Positions 35,636-61,731 of a stretch of DNA of 64,000 bases are shown here, piece after piece (the first letter of the stretch is position 1; each line of letters begins with the position of its first letter). Location of the stretch: positions 4,384,001 through 4,448,000 of the forward strand of contig OY776510.1 in assembly GCA_963675665.1 (NCBI GenBank), read 5' to 3'. The DNA comes from Spirochaetia bacterium. GTDB lineage: Bacteria > Spirochaetota > Spirochaetia > UBA9216. The position numbers and the translations under genes are program-made. Under the pieces are notes generated by a model. The model ran no database searches and was not told the origin of the DNA. It saw nothing but the letters and a program-made list of their open reading frames with translations.

Positions 35636-35636
35636 T

Positions 35637-35924: not shown

Positions 35925-35986
35925 TGATTGGCCCCCAAGTGCATATATTGTACCACATTTAGACTAATCCATCAATCCGGAATTAT

Positions 35987-44343: not shown

Positions 44344-44485
44344 ATTTAACGACAATTTTAGCTGCCTGGCGGCGCGAGTCTTTCGAGCACATTGGCGTGA
44401 TTCTGGAGTGGAGCGCGATCAGCGCGAAACGTCTTTAGCCAGAATCATGACAATAGCCAGGACTGTTACAAATTTCATGTTTTGT
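44344..44485 (-). repeat. attC site 7 (belongs to ORF-less cassette A)
   Basis: GACAATTTTAGCTGCCTGG variant with non-canonical core GTTTTGT. Confidence 0.85.
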
Positions 44486-44969
44486 GTAACGGCCCCATAC
44501 TCACTACTTTCATCTACATTCATAATTATCCTTTTTCTTACTTTGCCCCTTCTTTACCCAGCGTTCTCGCTGGGTTCATCCCAATTAATCATACAACGAT
44601 TTCCTCTTTGTAGGTATTTTTATTTTTAAACAATAACTACTGTTCTGTTTCTTAACATTTTACTTCTTCATTTCCGTAATATTCATTTTAAACATTTGGC
44701 CGCTAAAATTTTACGCAGGTTAGCTGTGATTTTTTTGAGAAGCTTAAAATAGGACATAGATACGAATACGTTTCACGTCGGAGGTTATGGGAAACTATCG
44801 AAAACAGGATGATTAACTCCATAAACTTCTTTATTCAACCTGCAAATTATTGTTCTATCAAAGAACTAAATCAAATATTTTCTTTTTAATATGTTTTTCA
44901 CTTATGTGTCATTTTAAACGGGAACCGTATAAAATCTTTATTTTAGCCTAATTCTCTTTTACACAAAAC
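44479..44969. repeat. ORF-less cassette copy A
   Basis: Near-identical to 56537-57027 and 61242-61731; ends GTTTTGTGTAA / TTACACAAAAC. Confidence 0.9.
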
Positions 44970-45101
44970 GACGATTTGAGTAGCAAAATTGATCGGCGTC
45001 TTCGCCGAATTGGCGCGATTCTGGAGTGAGGGCCATTGCCCGAACGTCTTCAGCCAGAATCGTGACAATAAATTTTGACTACTCCAAATCTCTTGTTTGT
45101 T
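44963..45101 (-). repeat. attC site 8
   Basis: Same family as the other attC sites. Confidence 0.85.
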
Positions 45102-45120
45102 TAGTAAGCATCTAATTTTT

Positions 45121-46206
45121 TTAAATCTTTCTTATATGATCACATATTTTAGCATATGCTTTCTCATAATAAAAAAAGTGTAAACATTGATTAGTACCAA
45201 GCTCAACTCCAAACCTATCCATCTGAACAAGATCGTAGAGACAACCACCATTACATAAACTAAAATATTTACAAATTTTGCATTTATTTCTTATTTCTAT
45301 TTCAATATTTTTATAATGTTCAATCCCTCTTGACTCGATATTTTCTTTAAAATTATCTAAATTATACTCCATTTTTAAAAAATTAAAATTATCAAACTTA
45401 TCACAGTGCGATATTAATCCATCATTATTTATAGTAAAATATTTACCAACACAATTTTGACCTTCATGACATAATCTTGGCTTGTTTTCAAATAAAATAT
45501 CAATCTTGCTTTCAAATTCTCTTAATTCAATCTCTTTATATTTATCACTTATTATTAAATCTATAAACTTATTCAAATATTTTTTAACTTTAGCAATATA
45601 AATTAAATACTCTTCTCTATTATTAAAACACAGTCTTAATGGTAATAATGCTATTTTGTAAATTCTATTTTCTTTAAGAAAATCTAATAATTCTACTGGT
45701 TTAGTATCCAATAATTCATTAGAAAGGACTGATAGAATACCAAATTTCTTAGTATTATCATTAACTATTTTTAGATTTTTTATAATAATTTCCGAACTCT
45801 TATTTCCATCAGGAAATATTCTATTTATATCATGAATTTGCATCAATCCATCAAAACTTATACCAATATTAAAATAATTCTCATTTAAAAAAGTTACAAA
45901 TTGTTTGGATAGTAAAGTACCATTAGTTTGAATAGAGTTGTATATTTCTTTTTTTATATATTTCTTCTGATCTTTAATTATTCTCTCATAAAACTCTTGT
46001 CCTAAAAGTAAAGGCTCTCCTCCATGCCAAATAAAATTAATTTTTTTTATCCAATACATAGAGTTTAGTACTTTAAATAATGAAATTAATAAACTACGTT
46101 CAATTTCTTTTGAATTATTATCTCGTTCAAAACAGTACTTACAATTTAAATTACACTTTCTAGTGGTTTTAATAATAAATGAAATATTGTCAGATTGTCT
46201 ATTCAT
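45121..46206 (-). CDS. Radical SAM/SPASM domain protein (anSME/peptide-maturase-like)
   Basis: CNLNCKYC, WHGGEPLL, IQTNGTL, ISFDG...HD.NR; SPASM cysteines C-x5-C...C...CKICKYFSLCNGGC...C. Confidence 0.88.
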   Translation of the reverse strand: MNRQSDNISFIIKTTRKCNLNCKYCFERDNNSKEIERSLLISLFKVLNSMYWIKKINFIWHGGEPLLLGQEFYERIIKDQKKYIKKEIYNSIQTNGTLLSKQFVTFLNENYFNIGISFDGLMQIHDINRIFPDGNKSSEIIIKNLKIVNDNTKKFGILSVLSNELLDTKPVELLDFLKENRIYKIALLPLRLCFNNREEYLIYIAKVKKYLNKFIDLIISDKYKEIELREFESKIDILFENKPRLCHEGQNCVGKYFTINNDGLISHCDKFDNFNFLKMEYNLDNFKENIESRGIEHYKNIEIEIRNKCKICKYFSLCNGGCLYDLVQMDRFGVELGTNQCLHFFYYEKAYAKICDHIRKI

Positions 46207-46634
46207 TTAAATTTTTTAAATAATTTTAATTCCTCCTCATTTAAATCATCTATTAATACTGATCTAATCTCTAAATTCTCATTTTGAATGGAAATTGTAT
46301 TTTGTAATGGTAATTCATCATCAGTCCAAGAATTATCCCAGCATTCACCAAATCCTCCATCTGAATGACACCATCCATTTGTATAACTTTCTGCGACTTC
46401 TCCACCATCCGTTAACGGAAGATTTACAATCTTTCTAATCGATTCTGGAATTGTAGTGCCTTTTTGAATCGATATAGTTCTAATTAATTTTATACTTTCA
46501 TGGTCGTTAACGACATCTCCAACAGTTCTTCCAATTCTATTAGTTATAACATCTTCTGAATTCTTATCAACAAAGTTGCTTTTATTTTCGATCATTTTTA
46601 TAACTTTTCTTATTCTTTTACTTAAATCTGCCAT
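46203..46634 (-). CDS. Hypothetical protein; candidate RiPP precursor or rSAM substrate
   Basis: RBS GGAGG before ATG 46634; ATGA overlap with the rSAM gene; segment YTNGWCHSDGGFGECWDNSWTD. Confidence 0.62.
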   Translation of the reverse strand: MADLSKRIRKVIKMIENKSNFVDKNSEDVITNRIGRTVGDVVNDHESIKLIRTISIQKGTTIPESIRKIVNLPLTDGGEVAESYTNGWCHSDGGFGECWDNSWTDDELPLQNTISIQNENLEIRSVLIDDLNEEELKLFKKFK

Positions 46635-47056
46635 AGGACCCTCCATAATTTTTAATTGGATACATACTAGAGCAAAACAACTATTTTCTTATAAAAATTA
46701 TAACCCTATATAAGAAATATGTCATTATTTTTTAAAAAACCTACGCCACTTGTTTAAACGAAGTATCCTATATATCTATCATTTTTAGGCTATCTAAAGC
46801 CCAATTTTATAATACACAATCTCAATATTTTTATCATTTTAATGATATCAAAGTAAATGTTATTTAAATCCTTATAAAACTTACATTTATTGATTTATAA
46901 TTTTGTAAGAATTCATTAAGTTCTCTTATATTTATATCTCTTTAAGCAAATATCTTATCTCAAAACTGTCTTTTTATCTTATTCCTCTTTATTTCTGATT
47001 ATTTACCCTATTATTAAAAAACTGTACACAAAGCTGTCTGACTATACTCGCTTTAC

Positions 47057-47195
47057 ATTTAACGACGTTTTGAGTAGCAAAATCGGCCGAGTCTTCGAGG
47101 CTTGGCGCGTGTTTTTGCATAGCTTTTTACCTCTACCCTACTTTTCTGCAAAAACCGTGACAAAGATTTTGACTACTCCAAAACTCATGTTATAC
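47057..47195 (-). repeat. attC site 9 (pyrimidine-loop variant)
   Basis: Same arms; central GTTTTTGC...GCAAAAAC stem. Confidence 0.85.
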
Positions 47196-47202
47196 GGATT
47201 TT

Positions 47203-47493
47203 CTATACTTTTTCTAATAATTTCCCAGAAACATATTTATGCAATATCATTGATACCAGAGTTTGATATGGTAAGCCTTCTTCCATTGCTTTTATCTTCA
47301 AATTCTTCAAATCTCTTTCTGATATTCTTATATTCATCCTTTTATCTTTTTTCATCGTAGCTTCAGCATATCTTTTTGCTTGAAGCCTATATTCTTCACT
47401 TTCTTCTATTTCTTCCCATTCACCTTTCTCAAGTGAATTCATTAAATCGCGTTCTTCTTCATCTATCGGAGTACACATATTTTTATCTTTCAT
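47203..47493 (-). CDS. CopG-like antitoxin
   Basis: KDKRMNIRISERDL..LK.KA.EEGLPYQTL...LHKY. Confidence 0.82.
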   Translation of the reverse strand: MKDKNMCTPIDEEERDLMNSLEKGEWEEIEESEEYRLQAKRYAEATMKKDKRMNIRISERDLKNLKIKAMEEGLPYQTLVSMILHKYVSGKLLEKV

Positions 47494-47777
47494 TCCTTTC
47501 CTCCATTCTTCAATAATTTCTTTGTATATTCCCTACTCGGGTATATCGTCTTTAGAAATATCTCTTTATCTTCTTTATTTTCAACAAAAGGCACTACATA
47601 TATATAATCATTATAATTGATTAGATAAATTTTCTGATTTCCATATTTTTCTTCATTTGGATGCTTTAAGACTTTTACAACTTTTCCTTCAGAAATACAC
47701 AATATAATTTCTTCAAATGAAAAATTGCGTTGTTCCTTCAGTATTTCATTCTTTTCATCATTCCAATTATATGTCAT
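47490..47777 (-). CDS. BrnT-like toxin
   Basis: WNDEKNE.LK..R..SFEEI, HPN..KY.NQ, YVVPFV, IFLKTIYPSR. Confidence 0.8.
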   Translation of the reverse strand: MTYNWNDEKNEILKEQRNFSFEEIILCISEGKVVKVLKHPNEEKYGNQKIYLINYNDYIYVVPFVENKEDKEIFLKTIYPSREYTKKLLKNGGKE

Positions 47778-47913
47778 ATTATAAAGATAAGCTCACGTGT
47801 GCCTTTTGTCAATACTTTATATTTCTTAAATTCTTACGAAGTCTCGATTTAACCACGAATGGCCCACCAAACTATGGATTCTATCAATATTATTTTATCT
47901 AATTCTTAATTCC

Positions 47914-48054
47914 GTATAACGACGTTTTGAGTAGCAAAATCGGCCGAGTCTTCGAGGCTTGGCACGCGTTTTTGCTACCGCTTTTTGCCTTTACCCTACT
48001 TTCTTAGCAAAAACCGTGACAAAGATTTTGACTACTCCAAATCTCTTGTTATGA
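47914..48054 (-). repeat. attC site 10 (pyrimidine-loop variant)
   Basis: Same family as the other attC sites. Confidence 0.85.
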
Positions 48055-49134
48055 TTACATCTTCAATATTTCCATTAATTTCTTATTAATGAATATATTC
48101 TCCCTTCCTACTTTTTCTAATTCTAATATTCCTATTTCAGATAGTTGATGCAAATATCGGGATGCTGCTTTTCGTTCTATTCCTATAGAATTTACTATGA
48201 ATTCAACTTTACAGTATGGGTTTTCAAAAAGAGTCTCTACCAATTCTTTTGTATAAATTTTTGAAGCTTTCTCTTTTACTTCATCTATTGTCTTATCCAA
48301 TAATTCTCTAATTTTCTTAATTTTATCAATCGTTTCTATTGCTGTCTGCTTTACTCCCTCAAGAATGTATAATAGCCATTCTTCCCATTCATCTTCAGAA
48401 GTAACTTTTCTTAACAATCGATAATATTCATTTTTATTCTTAATGATGTATGAACTCAAATACAGAATAGGTATTTCAAGATATTCTTTCAATAATAGGT
48501 ATAATACATTTAATATTCTTCCAGTTCTGCCATTTCCATCATGAAACGGATGTATGCTCTCAAATTGATAATGAATTATTCCCATTTTTATCAATGATGA
48601 TTCACCATCATTTAAATATTCGAATAAATTCTTCAACAGTTTATATATAATTTCAACTTCATCTGGTGGGGAGTAGACTATCTCTCTCGTTTTATCATTA
48701 TATAATCTGGTTCCTGGTGTTTTTCTTATACCTGAATCATTTTTCAACAAGATCTCTTGTATCTCGATAATTTCTTTTTCTGAGATGTATCCTTTTTCTT
48801 CTATTCTTTTATATCCCCAATTTAATGCTTCTCGATAGTACATCACTTCCTTTGTTGCATGATCTACACTTTTACTACTTGATATCGCCTGATACAATTC
48901 ATCTCTTGTTGTTATAATATTCTCAATTTCAGAACTATCTTTTGCTTCTTGAAGAATTATTGCATTAATTAATATAGATTGATTAGGAATAATATTGGCT
49001 ATACCTTTCAATTCTGCAAGTGAAGCGCGAGCTTCACTTTCCTTCTTCCATAATTCTAATGTCGCACATTTTGATTTATCTGGTGGTATTAGAGGAAGGT
49101 CATTAAACGGAATATCTGCTTTAAAACTACTCAT
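48055..49134 (-). CDS. Fic family protein
   Basis: EAKDSSEIENI and canonical HPFHDGNGRTGR; C-terminal HTH. Confidence 0.9.
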   Translation of the reverse strand: MSSFKADIPFNDLPLIPPDKSKCATLELWKKESEARASLAELKGIANIIPNQSILINAIILQEAKDSSEIENIITTRDELYQAISSSKSVDHATKEVMYYREALNWGYKRIEEKGYISEKEIIEIQEILLKNDSGIRKTPGTRLYNDKTREIVYSPPDEVEIIYKLLKNLFEYLNDGESSLIKMGIIHYQFESIHPFHDGNGRTGRILNVLYLLLKEYLEIPILYLSSYIIKNKNEYYRLLRKVTSEDEWEEWLLYILEGVKQTAIETIDKIKKIRELLDKTIDEVKEKASKIYTKELVETLFENPYCKVEFIVNSIGIERKAASRYLHQLSEIGILELEKVGRENIFINKKLMEILKM

Positions 49135-49340
49135 ATGTACCATTTTACTATATTTTCGGTCACATCACAAGCTATTTGTACTTATATCCAATATTTTGGT
49201 ACACATACAGTTTTTATGTGCATCCCATGCACATGACATTTCATTCATGTACACGTTTTTCTTTTCTTTGTACATGTCAAGCTAATCATGTCCTCATTTT
49301 CAGCTTTTAAGGACATTTAAGCCGATTATTTTTTTGTTAA

Positions 49341-49481
49341 TCATAACGACGTTTTGAGTAGCAAAATCGGCCGAGTCTTCGAGGCTTGGCACGTGTTTTT
49401 GCTACCGCTTTTTGCCTTTACCCAACTTTCTCAGCAAAAACCGTGACAAAGATTTTGACTACTCCAAAACTCACGTTATCA
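49341..49481 (-). repeat. attC site 11 (pyrimidine-loop variant)
   Basis: Same family as the other attC sites. Confidence 0.85.
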
Positions 49482-49593
49482 AGAGCTTTTTTCTTAATTT
49501 CTTCAGATTCTCTTCATTCTTAAATATCTTCATGTTCTTCTTTCCCACACTTTTAGCTTCCATTGGGATTATTCTTAAATTTTTCTTATCTAC

Positions 49594-49824
49594 TTATGAT
49601 GCTTTCCAATTTATATTCAATTTCAGATTTTTCCTTGCACAATCTGCTAAATACAAATTGATCAATTGCTGATATTTTATTCCCGATTCTTCGGACATTT
49701 CTTTAAAATAATCGATAGTATCTTCATCTAAGCGGATAGTAATCTGCTTCTTCAGTTTTGAGACATAGGGATTCTTTTTTGCATTTGAAAAATCATAATG
49801 TTCTCTCATAATTTCATCCTCCAT
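49594..49824 (-). CDS. brnA: BrnA-family antitoxin
   Basis: MREHYDFS.AKKNPY, KKQITIRLD..TIDYFK, YQQLIN.YL. Confidence 0.82.
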   Translation of the reverse strand: MEDEIMREHYDFSNAKKNPYVSKLKKQITIRLDEDTIDYFKEMSEESGIKYQQLINLYLADCARKNLKLNINWKAS

Positions 49825-50098
49825 ATTTCCTGGTTTCGTCCTTATCAGCTTTCCTTGCTGATATAATCCTTATTACTTCTTCATTTTCTCTATAACAATG
49901 ACATACAACCAACACTTTTAATGTTTGTGATAATCCCATAATCAAGAATCTTTCTTCATCTTCAGAATGATCCGGATCATGAATTATTAACGCAGCTGGA
50001 TCATAAAACACTGTTATTGCTTCATCAAAGCTAACCTTATGCTTCTTTATATTTAACTTATTTTTATTTTCATCCCATTCAAACTGGATATGTTTCAT
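49814..50098 (-). CDS. brnT: BrnT-family ribonuclease toxin
   Basis: FEWDENKN..NIKKH.VSFDEA, DPDHS..EERF, IRIISARKA. Confidence 0.88.
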   Translation of the reverse strand: MKHIQFEWDENKNKLNIKKHKVSFDEAITVFYDPAALIIHDPDHSEDEERFLIMGLSQTLKVLVVCHCYRENEEVIRIISARKADKDETRKYGG

Positions 50099-50282
50099 AC
50101 TTATAATGTACATACATTGTAGTGTTTTGTCAATTTTTATATTTCTTAATGATCCCAGCCCTAATACTCGCTTCCACTGGGGTTATCCTTTCAGTCTCAC
50201 TACCTCTGGAGGAAAATTCGTTCATAGAAGTGTATAGACTATTACAATTATTATATCAAATTTTCATGGAGTTCCGGGTTCT

Positions 50283-50421
50283 TGATAACGACGATTTGAG
50301 TAGCGAAACCGGCCGAGTCTTCGAGGCTTGGCGCAGTTCTGGAACGCAGCGCGATCAGCGCGGAGTGTCTTTAGCCAGAACTGTGACAAAGGTTTTGACT
50401 ACTCCAAATCTCTTGTTATGA
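50283..50421 (-). repeat. attC site 12
   Basis: Same family as the other attC sites. Confidence 0.87.
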
Positions 50422-50836
50422 ATATTTTTCTTCTAATACATCATCAATATCTATCAACCCGAATCCAACTTCATCAATATTATAGTCTTTATATTTCTTA
50501 ACTAAATTCTTAGATTTTTCTTTTAACTTCTTCATATTAATTTTTTCTTTATTCATTTTTATTTCACCTATAATCATCTTTTTATTTATCTCATCTATAC
50601 AGACTAAATCGATTTCGTTTTGATTTCCTTTTTCCCAATAATTTCCAATTTCATTAAAATTTCCAGAGTCTCTAAATATTTCATGATATAGCTTTTCAAG
50701 TATGGGACCGCTGTAGGATTTAAAATTTTCTTCTAAATTCTTTCTTATATATAAATAATTATTGTTCTCTATTGCAGAACGATATTTATAAACAAATCTA
50801 AACCAAAATTTTAAAAAATTATCTTTTATATAATAT

Positions 50837-52111
50837 CATAGCTGTCCAAAATAAGGACTATTAATAGCCTGAATCCCTGGTTATAATGAATTGAGCGGGC
50901 AAGCTTAAATCATTACAACGGAAGGAAAACAGGCAATGAGTTATAAGAATAGCATTTTAAATCAGATACTTCAAATCATTCCGAGACATGAATTTGAAAG
51001 ATCTGTCAGAAAGTATAAAGGAGATTTTGCTTCAAAAGGATTCTCCTGTTGGGAACAATTTGTTTCAATGCTGTTTGCCCAATTTACAGGACAGACCGGA
51101 CTTAGAGGCATAGAAACAGCATTGGATTCGATTAAAAACATGCTTTATCATTTGGGGGTAAAAAAGATTAAACGCTCAACACTTTCCTATGCAAATAACA
51201 ACAGACCCTCAGAAATTTATGAAAATGTATTCAATAACCTGCTGACAAAGATCCTTAAAATGAAAAGGTCTCATAAGCATAGATTTAAAAATCCGCTGTA
51301 CAGTGTTGATGCGACAACCATCGATTTATGCCTGTCAGTATTTCCATGGGCGAAGTTTAGAAAGAATAAAGGCGGAATCAAACTTAATGTAAAACTTGAT
51401 CACAGCGGATATATTCCGGACTTTGTATCTGTTACAACAGCTCAAACCCATGAGCTTAATTCACTCAAGAAAATGAAATTCAATAAAGGTGATGTAGTTG
51501 CATTCGATCGGGCCTATACAGATTTCAAATTATTTGCAAGTTATTGTATTGCAGGCATTTATTTTATTACTCGTATGAAAAAGAATGCAGATTATAAAGT
51601 TTTTCAAAGAAATAATGTTTCAAAATATGAAAATATTTCATCAGATCAAATAATTGAAATGCGAGGATACTACACCAGCAAGAAGTGTCCACTCCAATTA
51701 CGGCGAATTAGAATAAAAGATCCGGAAACAGGAAAATATATTGTAATTCTTACAAATCAGCTTGATTGGGCACCTACAACAGTTGCTGCTGTCTATAAGG
51801 ACAGATGGCAGATAGAAATATTCTTCAAAACAATCAAACAGAACCTGAAAATAAAGAAGTTTTTTGGAACGACGAAAAATGCAGTAATGACTCAGATCTG
51901 GATAGCATTGATAACTCATCTGATGCTGCAATATCTGAAGATGTTATCTTCCGGTGGATGGACTCATTATTCGCTTATGAAATTGCTTCCATCAATCCTG
52001 ACGACCAGAAAAGATCTCTGGAATATTCTGAATAAACTACCGCCGCCCGGCAGAAATGAGCCAGGCTTAAAACTTCAAATGGAGCTGTTATGATTGTTTT
52101 GGACAGCTATG
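50837..52111 (+). mobile_element. IS4-family element copy 3 (1275 bp)
   Basis: Same IRs as copy 1; 9-bp duplication ATATAATAT. Confidence 0.93.
50936..52093 (+). CDS. IS4-family transposase
   Basis: Protein identical to the other two copies. Confidence 0.93.
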   Translation: MSYKNSILNQILQIIPRHEFERSVRKYKGDFASKGFSCWEQFVSMLFAQFTGQTGLRGIETALDSIKNMLYHLGVKKIKRSTLSYANNNRPSEIYENVFNNLLTKILKMKRSHKHRFKNPLYSVDATTIDLCLSVFPWAKFRKNKGGIKLNVKLDHSGYIPDFVSVTTAQTHELNSLKKMKFNKGDVVAFDRAYTDFKLFASYCIAGIYFITRMKKNADYKVFQRNNVSKYENISSDQIIEMRGYYTSKKCPLQLRRIRIKDPETGKYIVILTNQLDWAPTTVAAVYKDRWQIEIFFKTIKQNLKIKKFFGTTKNAVMTQIWIALITHLMLQYLKMLSSGGWTHYSLMKLLPSILTTRKDLWNILNKLPPPGRNEPGLKLQMELL

Positions 52112-53102: not shown

Positions 53103-53244
53103 TCATAACGACGAAATAAGTTGCGCCCTCGATCCTGAGCGAAGCGAAGGAATTGGCACTGTTTCTGAGTGAGGGCCATTGCCCGAACGTCTTCAGCAGA
53201 AACTGTGACAATAGACGGCGACAACTTCATTTCATTTGTTATAT
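53103..53244 (-). repeat. attC site 13 (divergent variant)
   Basis: TAACGACGAAATAAGTTGCGCC...GGCGACAACTTCATTTCATTTGTTA; arms changed with complementarity preserved. Confidence 0.8.
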
Positions 53245-53333
53245 TGCTTATTTTCTATATATATTTATTACTCTAATTTTCTCAATATTTCTTTTTCTAT
53301 TCCCTATATTTTTTCTATCTCGATATTATAGTA

Positions 53334-54680
53334 CTATATTACTTCTTCCAATTTTCTATCTATATCTACAATTGAAAGTCCTTCATATTTACATTCATAT
53401 CCCTTATATTTCAGTAGCAAATTTTCTGTCTTTTCTTTCAATCTCTTAATATTTATCTTTTCTTTATTCATCTTCACTTCTGCAAAATATATTCTTTTAT
53501 CTATGTCATTTATTGCGACAATATCTATCTCATTCAAATTCCCTTTTTCCCAATATCTTCCAATAATTCCATATTCCGGATTATATCCAATTATTTCAAT
53601 AAACAATTTTTCTAATTTTGGTCCTGCAAATGTCGATAAATCCCGCTCTATCAATCTTTTTACATAATCAAATCTATCGGCGGATATCATTGTCATATTT
53701 TTATTTATAAATCTAAACCAGAATTCTATAAAATTATCTTTTATTATATATTTCTGATTTCTTGAATCCTTTTTTGCTCCTATAGGTCTTACTTTCTCTA
53801 ATATATCATATTCATTTTCTAACCTTTCTAAAAAACCGCCTACACTTTTCCCTATAACTGATTCTACTTCACTTCTTGAAGTTCGTCCTACTGATATTAA
53901 TTCCAAAATTGAAAAGTATTTTCCATATTCTTTCCCAAATTCCTGGATTAATAAATTCCGACCTTCTTCCAGGAAAAAGGAATCTTTCTGTAGAATATAG
54001 TCTATTATCTCTTCTTTATTATACTTTCTTGCTTCATTTAGTATTTCTATATATCTTGGAACTCCTCCTGTGATAAGATAGTTTATAAATAAATTTTCTT
54101 CATTATAATATTCATTTTCTATTAATACATCTTTTATTGTTGATACTTTAAATTGTTTTAAATATAAAATCCTATCAGCTCTACCATATAATGGTTCTTT
54201 TTCATTCTGAAATATTTCTTTCATTAAAGAATATATTGACCCTATAAATATTACATGAGTTTTTGTTTTAAATTTATATTTATCCCATATCCTTTGTATT
54301 TCAGAGTAAGTACTTTTATTTATATTTATAAATTCTTGAAATTCATCAATAATTAATACATATGGATGGTTTTCTCCATAGACCATTAGTAGTTCAAATA
54401 ATTCATGAAAATAATCTATTTTTCCTATAAACTTTTTCTGCGTTAATTCTTCATATTGAACTATAAACTCTTCGCAAAGAAGCCTTTCTTCTTTTTTATT
54501 TATGAAAAGATAAATATTCTCTTTATTTTCAGCATATTTTTGTGACAATACTGTTTTGCCAATACGACGGCGGCCTGTTATTACAGTTATTTTCCCATAA
54601 GATTTGCCACATTGAGCATAAATTTCTTCAAGTATATTTAATTCATCTGTTCTACCGTAAAATTTCAATGCAATCCTCAT
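53334..54680 (-). CDS. ATPase with DUF234 / PD-(D/E)XK C-terminus
   Basis: GRRRIGKT, IIDEFQ, TGGVPRY, EIDIVA...EVK; paralog of 37349-38671; true start possibly TTG 54668. Confidence 0.85.
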   Translation of the reverse strand: MRIALKFYGRTDELNILEEIYAQCGKSYGKITVITGRRRIGKTVLSQKYAENKENIYLFINKKEERLLCEEFIVQYEELTQKKFIGKIDYFHELFELLMVYGENHPYVLIIDEFQEFININKSTYSEIQRIWDKYKFKTKTHVIFIGSIYSLMKEIFQNEKEPLYGRADRILYLKQFKVSTIKDVLIENEYYNEENLFINYLITGGVPRYIEILNEARKYNKEEIIDYILQKDSFFLEEGRNLLIQEFGKEYGKYFSILELISVGRTSRSEVESVIGKSVGGFLERLENEYDILEKVRPIGAKKDSRNQKYIIKDNFIEFWFRFINKNMTMISADRFDYVKRLIERDLSTFAGPKLEKLFIEIIGYNPEYGIIGRYWEKGNLNEIDIVAINDIDKRIYFAEVKMNKEKINIKRLKEKTENLLLKYKGYECKYEGLSIVDIDRKLEEVI

Positions 54681-54731
54681 TACTGTAATATGTATTGCAT
54701 TATATCATTTTATCCCAAATTCCGCAAGTCA

Positions 54732-54867
54732 ATATAACGACGATTTGAGTAGCAAAATTGGTCCGCGTCTTCGCGGAACTGGCGCGATTCTGGAGTGAGC
54801 GATCAGCGAACGTCTTTAGCCAGAATCGTGACAATAAATTTTGACTACTCCAAATCTCTTGTTAAAT
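54732..54867 (-). repeat. attC site 14
   Basis: Same family as the other attC sites. Confidence 0.87.
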
Positions 54868-55047
54868 GCTGATAATATATACTCATTTAGAAAATAAAAA
54901 TGAGCATAGTGGCTAACCCCGTAAGGGCGAAGCTTATCTTCCCTTGTTATATACAGTTTCTACAGTTTCTAATGGTTGTCTAAAAAATACATTTATCAAA
55001 TACAAGGATGTATTTGATATCAGAATAATTTAGATTAAATCGCTTTA

Positions 55048-56115
55048 TTAATATTGATCTTTTATAGAAAGTTCATTGGCCAAGTCACTACACCCATCCA
55101 ACATTGAATCGACAGTTAAATAAATACCACGAGCAGATAAAAATGTCTCGTTAGATTCAATATCTATCAACTGAGCATTAATTACAAAACGAGAACCAAC
55201 ATTACCTAAACTTCCAACTACCATATAATCAGCAGAAAGAGCCTTCCCCATCTCTAATTGGCATGAAACATCAGTACAACCTGTCATTGAATACTTTATC
55301 TCACTTAAAGTAGCTTCACGCTGTGATCTATCTATAATTCTATAGTAACCTGTATCAAATAATGCGCCACTTAGATAATCTACAAGAAAATTTGCTTCAT
55401 TTTCTGAAATGCCTTCATATTCAAAATCAAATACTGTTAGAATTGGAAGATCATCTCTATTAATAACAATATTTTCACTTTTTGCGGCTTCAGCCTTGTC
55501 TCGCAACTGTTTTTGATATATTTCTCTTGAAATACTAACTTCTTTTTCAATTTCAGTAAAAGAAAGTGAATATTCTAAGGCAGATAATGAAGCCGCTATG
55601 CATTTGAACATTTCTTCACCAACATTAGAGCTAATGTTAAAAACAGAAAACTCATCAGATATGCAGGAACCCTCCAACTTGACATCAAACAGTTCATCGC
55701 CAGTGTATGCATCATTTATTGAAAAATCATACCTAATTTGAGATTCTATAGTTATATTAAAACCTGCTGGCCATTTAACGTAAGCATTCCTTACATTTAC
55801 TATAATATCAATATCAGGTTCATTACTTTCAATCAAGCCAATACCATTTAGAATTGTATTAAAATTTTTACGCGTAATTTCTGAAATTGTTTGATCTGAT
55901 TTATAAGATTCATTTTCATTTACAAAAATGAAATTACTTCCAATATTACTTTGATCTTTGACTGTCAAGCGATAAGTTAAATCATCAACATAATCCCAGT
56001 GCGTATTATGATATCGAGTTGGTGTGTCAATATGTATTGTAGTACATCCAGAAAGTATAATCATAATGATAAAGAATAATAATTTTTTCATTAAAAGGAC
56101 TTTTAATTTTTTCAT
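55048..56115 (-). CDS. Lipoprotein with C-terminal CsgG/TolB-N-like domain
   Basis: Lipobox ILSGC; C-terminal IIDRSQRE..L.E, GCTD.SC..EMGK.L.ADY.V.GS. Confidence 0.7.
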   Translation of the reverse strand: MKKLKVLLMKKLLFFIIMIILSGCTTIHIDTPTRYHNTHWDYVDDLTYRLTVKDQSNIGSNFIFVNENESYKSDQTISEITRKNFNTILNGIGLIESNEPDIDIIVNVRNAYVKWPAGFNITIESQIRYDFSINDAYTGDELFDVKLEGSCISDEFSVFNISSNVGEEMFKCIAASLSALEYSLSFTEIEKEVSISREIYQKQLRDKAEAAKSENIVINRDDLPILTVFDFEYEGISENEANFLVDYLSGALFDTGYYRIIDRSQREATLSEIKYSMTGCTDVSCQLEMGKALSADYMVVGSLGNVGSRFVINAQLIDIESNETFLSARGIYLTVDSMLDGCSDLANELSIKDQY

Positions 56116-56401
56116 AATATGAAGAAAGTATACTTTATGTTTATAAATTTATCAATTTATAAATTTACACTATAGCAAGCAATAGATTTTAATACTCTAT
56201 CTAAAAGCAAATTATTAAAAGATGATATCCTAAAATATACTTAAATCTATTAATAAGCCCGCCATGGACGGCGGGCTCTTCCTTAAACAATCCCAACCAT
56301 GACAAAAATTGCGTCTAACGTTGCGGGAATATAAAACGTTTTTATTTTTCTAATTGATTCTACCACACCCATCATTTTCCCGAAACTGAAAAATCCCGTG
56401 C

Positions 56402-56543
56402 ATTTAACGACAATTTTAGCTGCCTGGCGGCGCGAGTCTTTCGAGCACATTGGCGTGATTCTGGAGTGGAGCGCGATCAGCGCGAAACGTCTTTAGCCAG
56501 AATCATGACAATAGCCAGGACTGCTACAAATTTCATGTTTTGT
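56402..56543 (-). repeat. attC site 15 (belongs to ORF-less cassette B)
   Basis: Near-identical to attC 7. Confidence 0.85.
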
Positions 56544-57027
56544 GTAACGGCCCCATACTCACTACTTTCATCTACATTCATAATTATCCTTTTTCTTACT
56601 TTGCCCCTTCTTTACCCAGCGTTCTCGCTGGGTTCATCCCAATTAATCATACAATGATTTCCTCTTTGTAGGTATTTTTATTTTTAAACAATAACTACTG
56701 TTCTGTTTCTTAACATTTTACTTCTTCATTTCCGTAATATTCATTTTAAACATTTGGCCGCTAAAATTTTACGCAGGTTAGCTGTGATTTTTTTGAGAAG
56801 CTTAAAATAGGACATAGATACGAATACGTTTCACGTCGGAGGTTATGGGAAACTATCGAAAACAGGATGATTAACTCCATAAACTTCTTTATTCAACCTG
56901 CAAATTATTGTTCTATCAAAGAACTGAATCAAATATTTTCTTTTTAATATGTTTTTCACTTATGTGTCATTCTAAACGGGAACCATATAAAATCTTTATT
57001 TTAGCCCAATTCTCGTTTACACAAAAC
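56537..57027. repeat. ORF-less cassette copy B
   Basis: Near-identical to copies A and C. Confidence 0.9.
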
Positions 57028-57161
57028 GACGTTTTGAGCTGCCTGGCGGCGCGTGTCTTCACGCGCATTGGCGTGATTCTGGAGTGTAGCGCGATCAGCG
57101 CGAAACGTCTTCAGCCAGAATCATGACAATAGCCAGGACTGCTCCAAAACTTTTGTTATAT
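57021..57161 (-). repeat. attC site 16
   Basis: Same family as the other attC sites. Confidence 0.87.
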
Positions 57162-58322
57162 TGAGTTTTTCACTATTCCATCATATATATTGTTCCATGA
57201 TACTACATTCATGCCATTTCTTTTTAAATTTTCATTTCCTCCATATATTAAATACATATTTTCTTTATCTATCTTTGATAATTCACTCCAATATTTTAAA
57301 CCATCAAAATGTTTTTCATTCACTGTTTCACTGGATTTTATTTCTATTCCATATTTTTTAATTCCAAAATCAATTATTAGATCGATTTCTTTTTTATGAT
57401 TGTCTCTCCAATAATATAATTCATATTTCTCTCCAACATTATAATTTGCTTTAATCACTTCATTTATTATAAATGTTTCGAATATATTACCTTTTAAGAA
57501 ATGATAATCCAGTTCTTCTTTTTTTCTTATTCCTAATAGACTGCAAACTAAACCTGTATCGGTAAAATATATTTTAGGTGATTTAACCAATCTTTTATTA
57601 TAATTATTATAAAATGGTTTTAATCTATAAATTATAAAACTTGTCTCTAATATTGAAATCCATTCAATTATCGTTGCATGAGATACTCCACAATCTTCAC
57701 CAATTGTCTTTAAATTTAATTCTTGACCAGTTCTCCCCGCAAGAATCTTCATAAATTTTATAAATACCTCTAATTTCATTACTTTTTTTAATTGTCTTAA
57801 ATCTTTCTCAATATACGTGGATATATAATTCTTATAAAATACGTCTGCTCTAATATTCTGATCATAAATTCTTGGGTAAAATCCTTTAAAGATTAGTTCA
57901 TTTTTATCAATTTTTAGCTTATCAATTTCTTTTATCGAAAATGGAAGCAATTTAGAAATACCTACTCTTCCAGCCAATGATTGACTAATCTGTTCCATCA
58001 ATAAAAAGTTGTGAGATCCTGTTATTACAATTCGTCCATTTTTCTTTAGTTTATCCACATGAGTTTGCAGATAGCTTATTAATTTCGGATTTCTCTGTAT
58101 TTCATCAAAGATTACATTCTCACTATACCTATTTAAAAATCCTCGAGGATCTGATTCCGCAAACTCATAAACATCGTAATCTTCAAATGAAATATATTCA
58201 TAATTAGAGAAAATCTTCTGCGAAAGCGTAGTTTTCCCAGATTGTCGTGGTCCTAATATAGCTATTATTGGGAATTCATTTTTTAGAATGTTAATTTCTT
58301 TTTCGATTTGTCTATCTATCAT
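57156..58322 (-). CDS. AAA_14 ATPase with DUF4143 (PD-(D/E)XK-like) C-terminus
   Basis: GPRQSGKTT, FDEIQ, ITGS, SLAGR, KRLVKSPKIYFTDTGL, EIDL...IEIK. Confidence 0.87.
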   Translation of the reverse strand: MIDRQIEKEINILKNEFPIIAILGPRQSGKTTLSQKIFSNYEYISFEDYDVYEFAESDPRGFLNRYSENVIFDEIQRNPKLISYLQTHVDKLKKNGRIVITGSHNFLLMEQISQSLAGRVGISKLLPFSIKEIDKLKIDKNELIFKGFYPRIYDQNIRADVFYKNYISTYIEKDLRQLKKVMKLEVFIKFMKILAGRTGQELNLKTIGEDCGVSHATIIEWISILETSFIIYRLKPFYNNYNKRLVKSPKIYFTDTGLVCSLLGIRKKEELDYHFLKGNIFETFIINEVIKANYNVGEKYELYYWRDNHKKEIDLIIDFGIKKYGIEIKSSETVNEKHFDGLKYWSELSKIDKENMYLIYGGNENLKRNGMNVVSWNNIYDGIVKNSI

Positions 58323-58375
58323 CGTACAATTTTATCACATATGTACATTTTGTCAATCTTTTCTACACTCTACAC

Positions 58376-59681
58376 TGTTCAGACCGAGCATTGTACACAC
58401 ATTTCTAATAGTTCCATCTACAGTCTCGGTACGTAACTGTATTCCTGAATATCATACACCTGAAGTGCTGTTTCGTCCAAATATCCTAACCAATAATTCC
58501 GATAATACAGACGGTAAATACCTTCTCCTATCTCCTCCAATCCTACATCTTTACCCTTTAAAGCGGTTGTTACAAAAATCTGATCTGTTCTTCCTACTCT
58601 TATTATTCCGTTATTGCAGACATGCTTTATCTTATAATCTACTGGATATTCCCATTTCTCTATTTCTTCTTCATAGACTCTTTTAGACTTCTCATGAACA
58701 CTATTCGGCGTCTTCATACCTAAGGCCTCGTGTGGTCTTTCGTTATTATAAAACTTTTTAAACTTGTTGAATCGAACCTGCTGTGCTTGAAGATTCTTAC
58801 TTGGTCTTTGACATGTTGCAGCTTTCAATTCTCTATGCATTCTTTCATGTCTACCATTCTGTTCCGGGTGGCCAGGATCTGAATAGACTGGTTTCACTCC
58901 TAAGTCCATCAACCATACCCCGAAAGCTGTTAGTCGTCCTAAAGCTCTTACGTTTGCAAAAGGCACTCCGTTGTCGGTATGCAGCTGTAAAGGTAGTCCA
59001 TAGACTTCAAATATACCTTTGAAAATTGCCTTAACAGTTTCATAATCTGTTTTATGCAAACCTTTTATCTCGATTATTATTCGCGATTTACTATCACACA
59101 CGGTTAGAGGATAACAGTACTTTCCGTTACCCATCCTGAATTGACCTTTGAAATCAGCACTCCATACTTCGTTAGGTTCCTGCGGATCAAAAATTGGTTT
59201 TTCCGATTCTACTTTCTTTCTTTTTTTCCGTTCAGGAATTAATCCATTTCGCTTCAATATCAAGCTGACTGTTGAGCGTGCTGGTAGCTTTTCGTAAACC
59301 CCTTCTTTTTCTAATTTCCAGAGTATCTTACTTGCTCCCCAGTTTTTAGTTTCTTTAGTTGTTCGTATTTTTATTATTGCGTCTTCGATTGCTTTTGGTG
59401 TCTTACTGGGAATGTGGTGTGGAATTGTCGGCTGATTCTTTAAACCTTCCATTCCCCATTTTTCATACTTTTCTACATAACGGTATCCGGTAGTTCTTGT
59501 AATATTGAACTCTCGACACAGATGACTGAAACTATACTGACCGGATTTCCAAAGTAGAATAAATTCCTTCTTCTGATCCATTGCCGTAGTCTCCATCACT
59601 GGCATAATATCCTCCAATCCAGGATTTCTATATGCCTTTCATTGTACACCCACTTATTAGAAAAATGCTGATAATCTTACA
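58376..59681 (-). mobile_element. IS481-family element (second type; ends approximate)
   Basis: Transposase gene flanked by TGT/ACA candidates and repeated TTGTACAC / TTTCTAATA motifs; no clear target duplication. Confidence 0.6.
58418..59617 (-). CDS. IS481-family transposase
   Basis: LCREFNITRTTGY, WGASKI, WSADFKG, HTDNG.PF, PEQNGRHERMHR, YNNERPHEALGMKTP. Confidence 0.9.
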   Translation of the reverse strand: MEDIMPVMETTAMDQKKEFILLWKSGQYSFSHLCREFNITRTTGYRYVEKYEKWGMEGLKNQPTIPHHIPSKTPKAIEDAIIKIRTTKETKNWGASKILWKLEKEGVYEKLPARSTVSLILKRNGLIPERKKRKKVESEKPIFDPQEPNEVWSADFKGQFRMGNGKYCYPLTVCDSKSRIIIEIKGLHKTDYETVKAIFKGIFEVYGLPLQLHTDNGVPFANVRALGRLTAFGVWLMDLGVKPVYSDPGHPEQNGRHERMHRELKAATCQRPSKNLQAQQVRFNKFKKFYNNERPHEALGMKTPNSVHEKSKRVYEEEIEKWEYPVDYKIKHVCNNGIIRVGRTDQIFVTTALKGKDVGLEEIGEGIYRLYYRNYWLGYLDETALQVYDIQEYSYVPRL

Positions 59682-59699
59682 AGCCTGTACCTGATATCT

Positions 59700-59835
59700 A
59701 CATAACGACGATTTGAGTAGCAAAATTGTTCGGCGTCTTCGCCGAATTGGCGCGATTCTGGAGTGAGCGATCAGCGAACGTCTTTAGCCAGAATCGTGAC
59801 AATAAATTTTGACTACTCCAAATCTCTTGTTATAC
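59700..59835 (-). repeat. attC site 17
   Basis: Same family as the other attC sites. Confidence 0.87.
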
Positions 59836-61026
59836 AGGTTTTTCTATTTCTTGATATTTCTCTAATTCATCTAATTTAAACACTGAATCTATTACAATTT
59901 TTTCTTCTGCCTTCGTTTTCTCAAATAATGCCTTTTGTTTATCATTCATATATGAATTATATTTGGACTCTATTAAAAGATCCAAATTCTTTATATAAAA
60001 ATCTATTTCTATCCCATCTTCATATAAATAATAAATATCGTGTTGTTTCATTTTGAGAAACAAATAATTTTCAAAATAGCTCCCAAAATCCCTTGCTCCT
60101 GTAAAACAATGTTTTATTCCTAAGTCATTACAATATATTTTTTTAGGAGATAATATCTTTTCATTTGTTTTTCCATATCTTGATAATAATTGTATTAAGA
60201 ACGTATCATTAAAATAGTATAAATACTTTCGAGCAGAATTTACCGATATTTTCAAAATATTAGCGATCTTATTAATGCTTAATTGTTTACCACTTCTTTC
60301 CATCAATAATAAAAAGTAATCCTTTATCATTTGGGGATCTTTAATTGAATGTTCCGATATAATATCTTTATGTAAGATATCATCAACCAAACTAAATAAA
60401 AATTCTCTTTCTTCATTCAATACATAGTACGGGATTCCTCCTACCTTAAGAAAATCATCAAAATATGGTTCAAGCAATTTATTATCTTTTCTTGATATTT
60501 TAATATCCTTAAAATATAGATATTCATCAAAATCCAAGGGTTTTACTTCATAGATATATGCCCTTCCAGTTAAAAAAGCTTTTCTATCTTTCAACTTTAT
60601 ACTTGAAGATGATGAAGCATATACTTTTGCATTCTGCCTATCATGGATATTTTTCAATTGTTGATGGAAATCTTCTTTATATATTACTTCATCTAAAAAC
60701 AGGTAGACTTTATCATCAACCGGAATCCGATGTAATTTCCTATATTCATCCAATACATCCAGGATTGAATTATCTTTAAATACATAATCGTCTAAACTGA
60801 CATATAAGACATGATTTGCTGAAATACTCATTTCTTCTATTAATTCCTTGATAATCAACTTCATCAAGGTTGTTTTCCCAATACGTCGTAATCCTGTTAG
60901 AAAAATAATATGCTCATTTTGCAGATTTCTACGAAGTAACTCGAGATATTTCTTTCTGGGTATAATCCTATCTAATGAAAACTCACCTTCCCACCATGGG
61001 TTATATTGGTATAATGCATCTATCAT
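59830..61026 (-). CDS. AAA_14 ATPase with DUF4143-like C-terminus
   Basis: NPWW, GLRRIGKTT, FLDEV, LTGR, GGIP, PKKIY..DLG, EIDF...IESK. Confidence 0.85.
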   Translation of the reverse strand: MIDALYQYNPWWEGEFSLDRIIPRKKYLELLRRNLQNEHIIFLTGLRRIGKTTLMKLIIKELIEEMSISANHVLYVSLDDYVFKDNSILDVLDEYRKLHRIPVDDKVYLFLDEVIYKEDFHQQLKNIHDRQNAKVYASSSSSIKLKDRKAFLTGRAYIYEVKPLDFDEYLYFKDIKISRKDNKLLEPYFDDFLKVGGIPYYVLNEEREFLFSLVDDILHKDIISEHSIKDPQMIKDYFLLLMERSGKQLSINKIANILKISVNSARKYLYYFNDTFLIQLLSRYGKTNEKILSPKKIYCNDLGIKHCFTGARDFGSYFENYLFLKMKQHDIYYLYEDGIEIDFYIKNLDLLIESKYNSYMNDKQKALFEKTKAEEKIVIDSVFKLDELEKYQEIEKPV

Positions 61027-61106
61027 ATTATTATTTTATCACTAAATGCATATCCTTGCAACTTTTTATACTTTCTAAAAGTATATTATAACCATTTCTT
61101 AACTCT

Positions 61107-61248
61107 GTATAACGACAATTTTAGCTGCCTGGCGGCGCGAGTCTTTCGAGCGCATTGGCGTGATTCTGGAGTGCAGCGCGATCAGCGCGAAACGTCTTTA
61201 GCCAGAATCATGACAATAGCCAGGACTGCTACAAATTTCATGTTTTGT
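61107..61248 (-). repeat. attC site 18 (belongs to ORF-less cassette C)
   Basis: Near-identical to attC 7 and 15. Confidence 0.85.
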
Positions 61249-61731
61249 GTAACGACCCCATATCAACTACTTTCTTTTATCTTAACAGTATCCTTTTTAT
61301 TACTTTGCTCCTTCTTTACCCAGCGTTCTTGCTGGGTTCATCCCAATTAATCATACAACGATTTCCTCTTTGCAGGTATTTTTATTTTTAAACAATAACT
61401 ACTGTTCTGTTTCTTAACATTTTACTTCTTCATTTCCGTAATATTCATTTTAAACATTTGGCCGCTAAAATTTTACGCAGGTTAGCTGTGATTTTTTTGA
61501 GAAGCTTAAAATAGGACATAGATACGAATACGTTTCACGTCGGAGGTTATGGGAAACTATCGAAAACAGGATGATTAACTCCATAAACTTCTTTATTCAA
61601 CCTGCAAATTATTGTTCTATCAAAGAACTGAATCAAATATTTTCTTTTTAATATGTTTTTCACTTATGTGTCATTCTAAACGGGAACCATATAAAATCTT
61701 TATTTTAGCCCAATTCTCGTTTACACAAAAC
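61242..61731. repeat. ORF-less cassette copy C
   Basis: Central part identical to copies A and B; left ~70 bp diverged. Confidence 0.9.

Follow-up and report, generated by a model that had tools for sequence, protein, structure and literature searches.

What does an integron cassette without a gene of its own do, and what in its sequence could account for its repetition? In the 64-kb window (the whole stretch of DNA analysed, 64,000 nucleotides), the original prediction had described three near-identical copies of such a sequence at 44479-44969, 56537-57027 and 61242-61731; these positions are borne out, at a likeness far above chance. The gene-less repeat is a 619-bp integron cassette on the minus strand, comprising a 481-bp non-coding interior and its own attC of ~138 nt. 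The attC lies at the left end of copies A, B and C and is counted within the unit coordinates.

Copy A, 44350-44968, minus strand: 619-bp unit between two G|TT crossover points.
Copy B, 56408-57026, minus strand: 98.75% identity to A over the 481-bp interior.
Copy C, 61113-61730, minus strand: 618 bp, one base less; 95.6% identity to A.
The cassette's own attC, 44344-44485, minus strand: R' GTTAAAT at the 3' end and R'' ACAAAAC at the 5' end (array strand).

The copies are mosaic, as had been noted: the left end is identical in A and B, the right end in B and C, and the middle (44612-44867) in all three. They also have a single attC variant in common, with the array-strand crossover core G|TTTTGT, a variant of GTTRRRY. 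The triplication proves larger on the scale of the genome, where seven full-length matches and copy H, found in two pieces because it contains 147 extra nucleotides, make eight copies (86-100% identity) in addition to one distant paralogue, c39 (~52% identity overall). With 8 of at least 51 cassettes, plus c39, this family is the most amplified of the array. The short form without the 147 nt is the commonest (seven of eight copies; only H is long) and is a deletion derivative that out-multiplied the long form.

The unit has the anatomy of an integron cassette: attC sites that have R''/R' cores and G|TT crossover points delimit it, and its own attC stands at its 3' end. This left (3') attC belongs to the repeat unit in all eight copies; the right attC varies between copies. 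An nhmmer attC match covers 44347-44483, and the z-scores of the DNA fold (-3.5 on the plus strand vs -1.9 on the minus strand) identify the plus strand as the better-folding bottom strand. The site forms an imperfect hairpin whose structure is kept by compensatory change, and covariation among the copies' attCs is strong (13 of 42 pairs compensatory, reached by none of 500 shuffles). The array comprises at least 51 attC sites over ~107 kb, all in one orientation, and neighbours attI and an integron integrase gene. This intI matches TIGR02249 at 392 bits (cutoff 265) and is divergent from the array. The host setting is a very large, sedentary chromosomal integron of a marine, free-living spirochaete.

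Copy D is the first cassette of the array, next to intI; it abuts attI with a G|TTTTGT junction and adjoins non-attC sequence 475 nt from the start of the intI core. Its interior is identical to that of A at 481 of 481 bases. Copies E and G form a tandem pair spaced 619 nt, the length of the unit, and one contig of run X5 skips exactly 619 nt. In runs X5, X6 and X7 the cassette is present at high depth and its neighbours are covered far more thinly, in patches. All four observations show the cassette moving as a unit. Since unit-length copies end at G|TT, occur as a tandem pair and include one identical to A against attI and intI, integron recombination accounts for both the movement and the copying of this attC-bounded unit.

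The cassette encodes no conserved protein. Stop codons occur at the shuffle expectation in all six frames, substitutions between the copies lack 3-periodicity, a six-frame tblastn search of the cassette's own genome gave no match, and none of 38 open segments exceeded the Pfam cutoff. For one of the six frames, the read-through frame of H, 5.8 billion clusters held no protein at E<=0.01. The interior is thus without translated protein similarity or a synonymous-site pattern, and the decayed protein gene that would have refuted the original prediction did not appear in any of these analyses. Its description of the cassette as ORF-less needs a caveat. The interior has only small ORFs (the longest being 43 aa on the plus and 39 aa on the minus strand), but a 73-aa GTG ORF (44408-44629, plus strand) starts inside attC. 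This ORF is antisense and slightly above the limits used to define gene-less cassettes (no ORF >150 bp and no BLASTX match in Boucher 2006; no ORF >210 bp in Blanco 2024), and its frame is shifted in C and E-H by a 1-nt deletion at 44526.

Parts of this non-coding interior are constrained, because hairpins and a ~30-nt block are common to the cassette family and the distant c39, which keeps the following three elements nearly unchanged.

Block IV, 44838-44868, minus strand: the most conserved block common to the copies and c39.
HP1, 44556-44575, both strands: palindromic 8-bp hairpin ACCCAGCG-TTCT-CGCTGGGT, z about -5.
HP2, 44786-44823: two-tier stem-loop, kept in c39.

The best explanation, which we rate at roughly even odds, is that the interior of this gene-less cassette acts in cis on array transcription, as a 'promoter cassette'. 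Block IV holds an extended -10-like site at 44860-44852, which reads TGATAAAAT in E-H (at sense position 103-105 in each of the four, some 105 nt into the cassette from the 5' end), TGATAGAAC in A-D and TGATAAAAC in c39. Its last base (44852) is T in E-H and C in c39 and A-D, the latter including the copy whose move to attI is the most recent. The full extended -10 also occurs in variants from other samples. Elsewhere in the array, the motif TGnTAnAAT marks 11 of 41 other cassettes at a similar position. Its frequency is 2.4/kb in the first 110 nt of these 41 cassettes vs 0.36/kb over the remaining sense strand and 0.20/kb antisense, a 5'-end enrichment with a Poisson P of about 1e-6, although two pairs of the 11 are paralogues. 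Among the three readings that the original prediction had offered, a regulatory cassette fits best, because a -10 placed like the promoters of other cassettes lies in the most conserved block of a non-coding interior; what weakens it is that only four of the eight copies have the full -10. Moreover, no -35 element stands at the proper spacing from the site, and generic sigma-70 scans gave no excess over expectation (2 vs 3.9 and 5 vs 5.2 expected).

A sense transcript from the extended -10 would extend through interior and attC and so reach the next cassette. In A-D, where C replaces T as the final base of the -10, the variant may be weak or silent. HP1, HP2 and a plus-strand hairpin followed by T7 would be features of an RNA or a leader; however, a promoter as such does not account for the sequence-conserved palindrome, HP2 or the T7-terminated hairpin, and the few wobble or compensatory changes fit the plus (antisense) strand better. 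The plus strand has a promoter-like site of its own.

Antisense promoter-like site, 44906-44935, plus strand: GTGTCA-18-TAAAAT, consensus match only.

Its hexamers are invariant in the eight copies, and such matches are no commoner here than in shuffles. In the first-cassette copy, this site points at attI and intI.

Published promoter cassettes resemble this one in several respects. Of 29 gene-less Vibrio cassettes measuring 491-666 bp, most carry sense promoters (Blanco et al. 2024, PMC11014356), and Treponema ORF-less cassettes show promoter activity (Tansirichaiya et al. 2019, PMC6557892). The spirochaete cassette falls in the same size class with its attC (619 bp; PMC11014356) and, like those described in both reports, is gene-less, AT-rich and set in a long array beyond the reach of the distant Pc; it also has a -10-type element on the sense strand, here in half the copies. 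In contrast to cassettes with measured activity, the promoter is here predicted from sequence, the stretch occurs in no RNA run, and copies A-D as well as c39 have an imperfect -10. A section heading of Blanco et al. calls the in silico identification of promoters in such cassettes impossible (PMC11014356).

The copy number itself, the highest of the array, could be that of a selfish or neutral 'empty' cassette that multiplies only through efficient attC recombination, its copies being alike through recent copying and gene conversion. We consider this unlikely, though far from negligible. The mosaic copies are consistent with gene conversion, the commonest form, in seven of eight copies, is the 147-nt deletion derivative, and Boucher et al. 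2006 raise the selfish option for paralogous non-coding cassettes of Vibrio (PMC1382264). The distribution is narrow as well: variants of the cassette are present in other samples, and homologues were absent from 40 relatives (all 10 other genomes of the order included) and from the five genomes with the nearest IntI; the exact core had no match among genome or metagenome contigs. Mobility, however, needs attC alone, yet three interior blocks are nearly unchanged between paralogues of ~52% identity. Variation among A-G is also uneven, with 24 variable sites in 44484-44550 vs 2 in 44551-44600. The role of the cassette is probably either regulatory or selfish.

The original prediction had also offered a structured RNA. 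All of the stems on which it relied are present: the hairpin at 44556-44575, the closing stem GCAGGTT/AACCTGC (44715/44837) and the inner stem GGTTATGG/CCATAAAC. Two further elements belong to the same argument.

Terminator-like hairpin, 44691-44737, plus strand: -8.3 kcal/mol, then T7 (U7 in the RNA).
Domain of ~130 nt, 44715-44843: the core of the original prediction, closed by GCAGGTT/AACCTGC and found in the MFE of both strands; the 147 extra nt of copy H fall inside it.

The interior could be a non-coding RNA that affects expression of the array or the integrase, or acts in trans, either as an antisense (plus-strand) RNA ending at the hairpin-U7 of 44691-44737 or as a sense RNA starting just upstream of the 130-nt domain. 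We regard this as improbable, on a par with the selfish cassette. In its favour, HP1 folds well, the ~130-nt domain has z -2.7 (plus) and -3.1 (minus) in a window chosen after the fact, and the whole plus strand folds at z -2.25, a value equalled by 1 of 100 shuffles. Both HP1 and HP2 are retained in the ~52% paralogue. In HP2, nine pairs are kept in nearly all of seven sequences and one G-C to U-A compensatory change occurs, in c39, a covariation short of significance (equalled in 141 of 500 shuffles). The pair 44714-44728, followed by eye and without statistics, is C-G in five copies (A-D, G), U.G in two (E, F) and U-A in H. The exact 7-nt arms of HP1, ACCCAGC/GCTGGGT, occur at eight places in the 5.15-Mb genome, which are seven copies and c39, at a constant offset from attC; in H, one arm is altered to a wobble pair. 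An integron-encoded trans-acting sRNA is known from Xanthomonas, sRNA-Xcc1 (Chen et al. 2011, cited in PMC8876359).

Against an RNA, the interior shows covariation no better than chance (1 of 51 pairs, equalled in 126 of 500 shuffles), whereas the attCs of these copies yield a clear signal. The 86-100% identity of the copies limits the power of this comparison, although the attC control passes it. Changes in the predicted interior stems keep the pair in six cases and break it in seven, folds of 300-490 nt are unremarkable (z -0.84 to -2.25), and the arms of HP1 are conserved as sequence, not covarying. The Rfam search that had been proposed gave no match at gathering score in the 64-kb window (4227 families, Rfam 15), and at E<=5 the copy H locus had only two chance-level matches (E 1.8 and 2.4). 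As to the strand, HP1 is changed in two copies, C and H, each time to a plus-strand wobble, and the few wobble or compensatory changes do lean towards the plus strand, as predicted; strand-biased mutation would look alike, because C-to-T changes favoured on the bottom strand when single-stranded give the same pattern. A plus-strand RNA would also have no conserved promoter. Like sRNA-Xcc1, whose product is RNA (PMC8876359), the cassette is ORF-less; unlike it, the spirochaete cassette has no Rfam match among the 4227 families or significant covariation, and its RNA is a prediction.

More doubtful still is a related proposal in which the conserved hairpins are the functional structured nucleic acid of a self-amplifying non-coding cassette, as antisense RNA or as single-stranded DNA. 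The sequence-kept palindrome, HP2 and the U7-terminated plus-strand hairpin all lie on the recombinogenic bottom strand. As antisense RNA, they would tune integrase or array expression, the first-cassette copy facing intI. As ssDNA hairpins, they would raise the cassette's own excision and insertion, and the cassette would then be a genetic parasite, exploiting the integron machinery through cis-acting enhancers of its own.

The original prediction had also proposed a micropeptide or a type I toxin-antitoxin module. Both ORFs on which these depend are present in copy A, and both are unconserved.

39-aa ORF, 44703-44822, minus strand: rejected as a gene; replacements dominate, it is 22 aa in H and it is absent from c39.
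12-aa ORF MINWDEPSENAG, 44554-44592, minus strand: rejected as a gene; absent from c39, and its ribosome-binding site is lost in E-H.

A decayed gene, a micropeptide or a type I toxin is very improbable and already largely refuted: degenerated genes do occur among gene-less Vibrio cassettes (PMC11014356), a short minus-frame peptide likeness, HK(A/D)DEH, joins H and c39, and in A-D a good ribosome-binding site (AGAGGAA) precedes the 12-aa ORF, but the six frames look random in stops and codon periodicity with no protein-level match where tested, that site is missing from four of eight copies, and the conserved small hydrophobic ORF of a toxin-antitoxin module is lacking, as the 39-aa ORF, besides being cut in H, has only ~8 consecutive hydrophobic residues, short of a membrane-spanning length.

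The cassette is best seen as paralogous and non-coding, with a promoter or regulatory role probable. Multi-copy non-coding cassettes are already known from Vibrio, where they make up 6-49% of superintegrons and their purpose (promoter, RNA or selfish) is debated; Vibrio sp. DAT722 has 6 copies of one and V. vulnificus CMCP6 has 45 (PMC1382264). As described there, the Vibrio cassettes likewise have no ORF or translated match, are multi-copy in one array, have either close homologues or none, and these only in near relatives, are conserved over their whole length with gene conversion suspected, and face the same two explanations, selfish or promoter/regulatory. By itself, the spirochaete family is an ordinary example of this class. 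Compared by description, it differs in its spirochaete host, in having one copy first at attI and in a distant paralogue that marks constrained blocks. It widens the range of such cassettes to a free-living spirochaete whose canonical integron has at least 51 cassettes, and it is a convenient test case, offering natural -10 variants that look on or off (44852 being T or C), a 147-nt deletion derivative, a constraint-marking paralogue and an attI copy facing the integrase gene. Promoter activity in reporter or RNA data would strengthen the view that promoters borne by cassettes are a general means of expressing long arrays outside Vibrio. The antisense promoter-like site that faces intI in the first-cassette copy matches a situation discussed for Treponema (PMC8876359). 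The N-terminal extension of the spirochaete intI contains an in-frame TAG.

The repeat proved to be one 619-bp integron cassette, composed of a 481-bp interior and an attC site of ~138 nt. The triplication originally predicted is real at all three positions, as is its mosaic pattern: A equals B on the left, B equals C on the right, and all three agree through the middle. On the array strand the upstream boundary of the cassette is G↓TTTTGT and the downstream one G↓TTAAAT or a similar sequence. The left attC lies within the identity in every copy and the right attC varies between copies, as expected for a cassette that carries its own 3′ attC. The genome holds eight copies, three inside the window and five (D–H) further up the array.

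Copies of the gene-less cassette in the window
44350-44968, minus strand: copy A
56408-57026, minus strand: copy B
61113-61730, minus strand: copy C

Interior identity to A is 100% for D, 98.75% for B, 95.6% for C, 92–93% for E, F and G, and 86–90% for H, which has 147 additional nt in mid-interior. E and G stand in tandem at a spacing of 619 nt. The gene-less cassette is the largest family in the array, the other families having 2–5 members.

The host genome is one contig of 5.15 Mb, and the cassette array of its very large chromosomal integron extends from window position 33887 past the window end. An nhmmer profile made from six attC sites taken from the window identified 51 attC sites in the genome, all in a single orientation (genome 4417887-4524338); within this range of the array, one gap of 29 kb is free of attC. 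Genes of the cassettes are encoded on the minus strand, and the integron integrase gene (392 bits against TIGR02249, cutoff 265) lies on the plus strand just beyond the last cassette; the array strand is therefore minus, with each cassette's own attC at its left in window coordinates. The closest integrases come from Spirochaetales/Spirochaetia MAGs (71%, 62% and 58% identity over the best segment). As is typical of a sedentary integron, the array contains PIN, ParE/Phd, BrnT/BrnA and HEPN/MNT pairs, AAA ATPases, Fic, radical SAM and IS elements.

Copy D is the first cassette of the array: its ...ACAAAAC end is followed by non-attC sequence and then by intI. An A-identical copy at attI, 96 kb off, is what recent integrase-mediated copying to attI would leave. 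The cassette is also present, at depths that sum to about 20–400, in contigs of four other public sequencing runs: one sampled the same labelled organism again, one bears a different organism label, and two are marine metagenomes. There, both neighbouring cassettes have much thinner, patchy coverage, where thin or uncovered parts of the 3.4-kb stretch in runs X3 and X5–X7 are not counted as absence. These runs contain several sequence variants of the cassette, and one contig skips exactly 619 nt. The family attC occurs in two versions, one in A–D and one in E–H (window 44344-44485 versus L005:1358-1505), which agree exactly in the outermost ~45 nt at either end and are set apart in their central stems by many compensatory changes of paired bases; the centre looks like the product of exchange or rapid co-evolution. 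A degenerate internal attC was considered and discarded, as the GTT/AAC motifs of the GCAGGTT/AACCTGC closing stem in the interior are in the wrong order for attC. Complementarity and similarity between the cassette and the attI–intI region were at chance level only.

The array contains a distant paralogue, c39 (genome 4508641-4509246, 606 bp), which is likewise ORF-poor and, across an alignment of 581 columns, has only ~52% identity to H. It shares four features with the family: the palindromic hairpin HP1 (44556-44575; ACCCAGC...GCTGGGT) at the same ~72-nt offset from attC, a ~30-nt block CTGCAAA..TTTTATCAAAGAACTG, HP2, a two-tier stem-loop (44786-44823), and part of the 147 additional nt of H. 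The exact HP1 arm pattern occurs at only eight genome sites, namely seven copies and c39; in H one arm base is altered to give a wobble pair. Some interior blocks are evolving far more slowly than the remainder. The long form (H, c39) is thus the older, and the 481-bp form seems to have lost the segment between two imperfect direct repeats of ~12 nt that can be seen in H. Searched across the genome, four conserved blocks gave chance-level matches only, c39 excepted.

Beyond this genome, BLAST with A, c39 and H returned only 21–49-nt matches over 41 genomes, and likewise over 11 genomes of the order plus five with the nearest IntI. No homologue was found among 40 relatives, a set that takes in every one of the order's 10 other genomes, or in the five nearest-integrase genomes; a 29-mer match in G008/G010 lacks flanking homology. 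Exact-core pattern scans gave no match in genome contigs or in metagenome contigs, and an nhmmer profile of the cassette family none in 78 integron loci or in a 120-kb part of the G041 array (G041 is a genome from another genus of the host's taxonomic family). Two short ORF-poor stretches of the G041 array are unrelated to the family and partly attC fragments.

A promoter-type function is suggested by one motif. Generic sigma-70 scans revealed no excess of sites. The extended −10 motif TGnTAnAAT occurs 46 times on the array strand versus 21 times on the other strand. The first 110 nt of the 41 other cassettes contain 11 occurrences (2.4 per kb), compared with 0.36 per kb on the remaining sense strand and 0.20 per kb on the antisense strand. 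This 5′-end enrichment is about 7-fold over the remaining sense strand (Poisson P about 1e-6); about 9 of the 11 cassettes are independent, as two pairs are paralogues. TGnTAnAAT thus behaves like a genuine signal in the array, and many cassettes of this integron seem to bear their own promoter.

Examples of window cassettes with TGnTAnAAT at the 5′ end
35012-35988
47194-47915
49479-50284
53243-54733
54865-56404
59834-61108

In the gene-less family, E, F, G and H have TGATAAAAT at sense position 103–105, within a block shared with c39. The corresponding −10 site reads TGATAGAAC in A–D and TGATAAAAC in c39, both with C as the last −10 base; in the other sequencing runs the T-type base at this position (44852) predominates. 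A transcript from this site would start within a few bases of the 130-nt domain (44715-44843, closed by GCAGGTT/AACCTGC), on its upstream side, run through attC and enter the next cassette. The sequencing runs listed for the stretch include none of RNA, which speaks neither for nor against such a transcript. We put the odds that the gene-less cassette is a cis-regulatory, promoter-type element at about even.

A separate ~100-nt conserved 5′ leader is shared, on the array strand, by ten different protein-coding cassettes outside the window (c22, c23, c25, c26, c27, c30, c31, c38, c40 and c46; genome 4478501-4520578). It ends in a GC-rich hairpin, AGCCCGGACCTCCGGCCGACGGGCT, and may be a shared promoter plus structured-leader module; the c38 and c40 leader loci gave no Rfam match at E ≤ 1. 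None of the seven cassettes that follow a copy has this leader, which is within chance (about 0.16), and none of the three that follow E-type copies has a 5′ extended −10, again within chance (about 0.40).

The predicted start and read-through agree with the promoter activity that has been measured in similarly sized Vibrio cassettes without genes (PMC11014356) and in ORF-less Treponema cassettes (PMC6557892); here both are predictions. A section heading of the former report (Blanco) calls in silico identification of promoters in such cassettes impossible. The family is not a new kind of element. Boucher et al. 2006 (PMC1382264) described non-coding Vibrio array cassettes that lack both an ORF and any BLASTX match. 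Often these are paralogous (DAT722 has 6 copies, V. vulnificus CMCP6 has 45); they are conserved over their whole length, with homologues either close or absent, in relatives only. The spirochaete family, from another phylum, fits this description point by point. The same source proposes selfish elements or promoter-type functions; for the present family we regard a purely selfish cassette as unlikely. The value of the family is that of a tidy test system, with −10 variants that occur naturally, a distant paralogue, a derivative formed by deletion and an attI copy.

A structured RNA in the interior, as originally predicted, was examined by folding and covariation. An integron-borne sRNA is on record (sRNA-Xcc1, as cited in PMC8876359). 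The Rfam search returned no match at gathering score over the whole window; in E-value mode the copy H locus gave two chance matches, and the loci with c39 and two leaders none. Folding of the entire interior gave z −2.25 for the plus and −0.84 for the minus strand, and alignment folds against column shuffles gave z −2.4 and −1.9. The 130-nt domain reached z −2.7 and −3.1, with bounds picked after its closing stem had been seen, and HP1 z about −5 on both strands. Covariation did not bear out the structured core: over eight copies 1 of 51 pairs changed on both sides, which 126 of 500 shuffles also reach, and in the predicted structure six changed cells keep the pair and seven break it. With c39 added, the HP2 pairs are kept, one of them through a G-C to U-A change, a result that 141 of 500 shuffles equal. 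In the attC of the same nine cassettes, in contrast, 13 of 42 pairs are two-sided (0 of 500 shuffles); the method thus has power on this family, and the interior itself shows little.

The predicted lean towards a plus-strand RNA holds as an observation: both HP1 changes are wobbles on the plus strand only. A plus-strand hairpin followed by T7 (44714-44737, within a −8.3 kcal/mol hairpin starting at 44691) adds one pair that passes from C-G through U.G to U-A, leaning the same way. However, the plus strand is the cassette's recombinogenic bottom strand and is pyrimidine-rich, so that a C-to-T bias there would give the same pattern with no RNA. With interior covariation at chance and the attC control clear, we consider a structured RNA unlikely.

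Any coding reading of the cassette is highly improbable. Stop codons in the six frames each of A, H and c39 are as numerous as in shuffles; an open stretch in one of the 18 frames (H, plus strand) reaches the 3% level, loses significance once all 18 tests are allowed for, and is not conserved. Substitutions among copies lack 3-periodicity, and six-frame translations have no match in the rest of the genome. None of 38 open segments (≥25 aa) exceeded a Pfam cutoff, the sole listed match reaching 16.9 bits against 25.8, and one read-through frame of H, the single frame given to a database of 5.8 billion clusters, matched no protein at E ≤ 0.01. Within the scope of one frame compared with that database, these tests rule against a decayed protein gene and equally against the micropeptide or type I TA module first suggested. 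The 39-aa ORF undergoes mainly amino-acid replacements, is shortened to 22 aa in H and lacks a c39 counterpart; the 12-aa ORF keeps its frame, loses its ribosome-binding site in E–H and is absent from c39. A 19–34-aa ORF running into attC (44419-44523) was likewise rejected: its conserved ATG has no ribosome-binding site, its first ATG is lost in E–H, and the DNA there is constrained as attC.

The attI region has no nucleotide-level similarity to relatives. The intI frame (L001:2202-3479, genome 4525041-4526318, plus strand, outside the window) contains a TAG in frame at L001:2427-2429, a position occupied by tryptophan in the 419-aa G041 IntI (50% identity over 419 aa). The TAG falls in a ~85-aa N-terminal extension and leaves the downstream 339-aa catalytic core intact; the host integrase may be truncated or recently inactivated, despite the A-identical copy at attI. 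The G041 array has at least 39 attC sites of the host's sequence type (L113–L118, G041:C3:8500-128499) that score up to 139 bits with nhmmer, yet its IntI is just 50–58% identical to the host's. It likewise has a 23-kb stretch without attC; that of the host (genome 4448012-4477448) begins 12 nt beyond the window end.

The last attC of the array is at window 33887-34024, and near 33.5 kb, beside an IS copy, the array (GC about 0.30) gives way to GC-richer housekeeping DNA (about 0.37–0.50). This ~1.29-kb IS interrupts several cassettes. Six near-identical copies lie in the array, with the transposase always on the plus strand, and an additional copy immediately beyond the array end.

IS copies in the window
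42171-43328, plus strand: ~1.29-kb IS, 385-aa DDE_Tnp_1 + DUF4372 transposase
50936-52093, plus strand: IS copy
32250-33407, minus strand: IS copy
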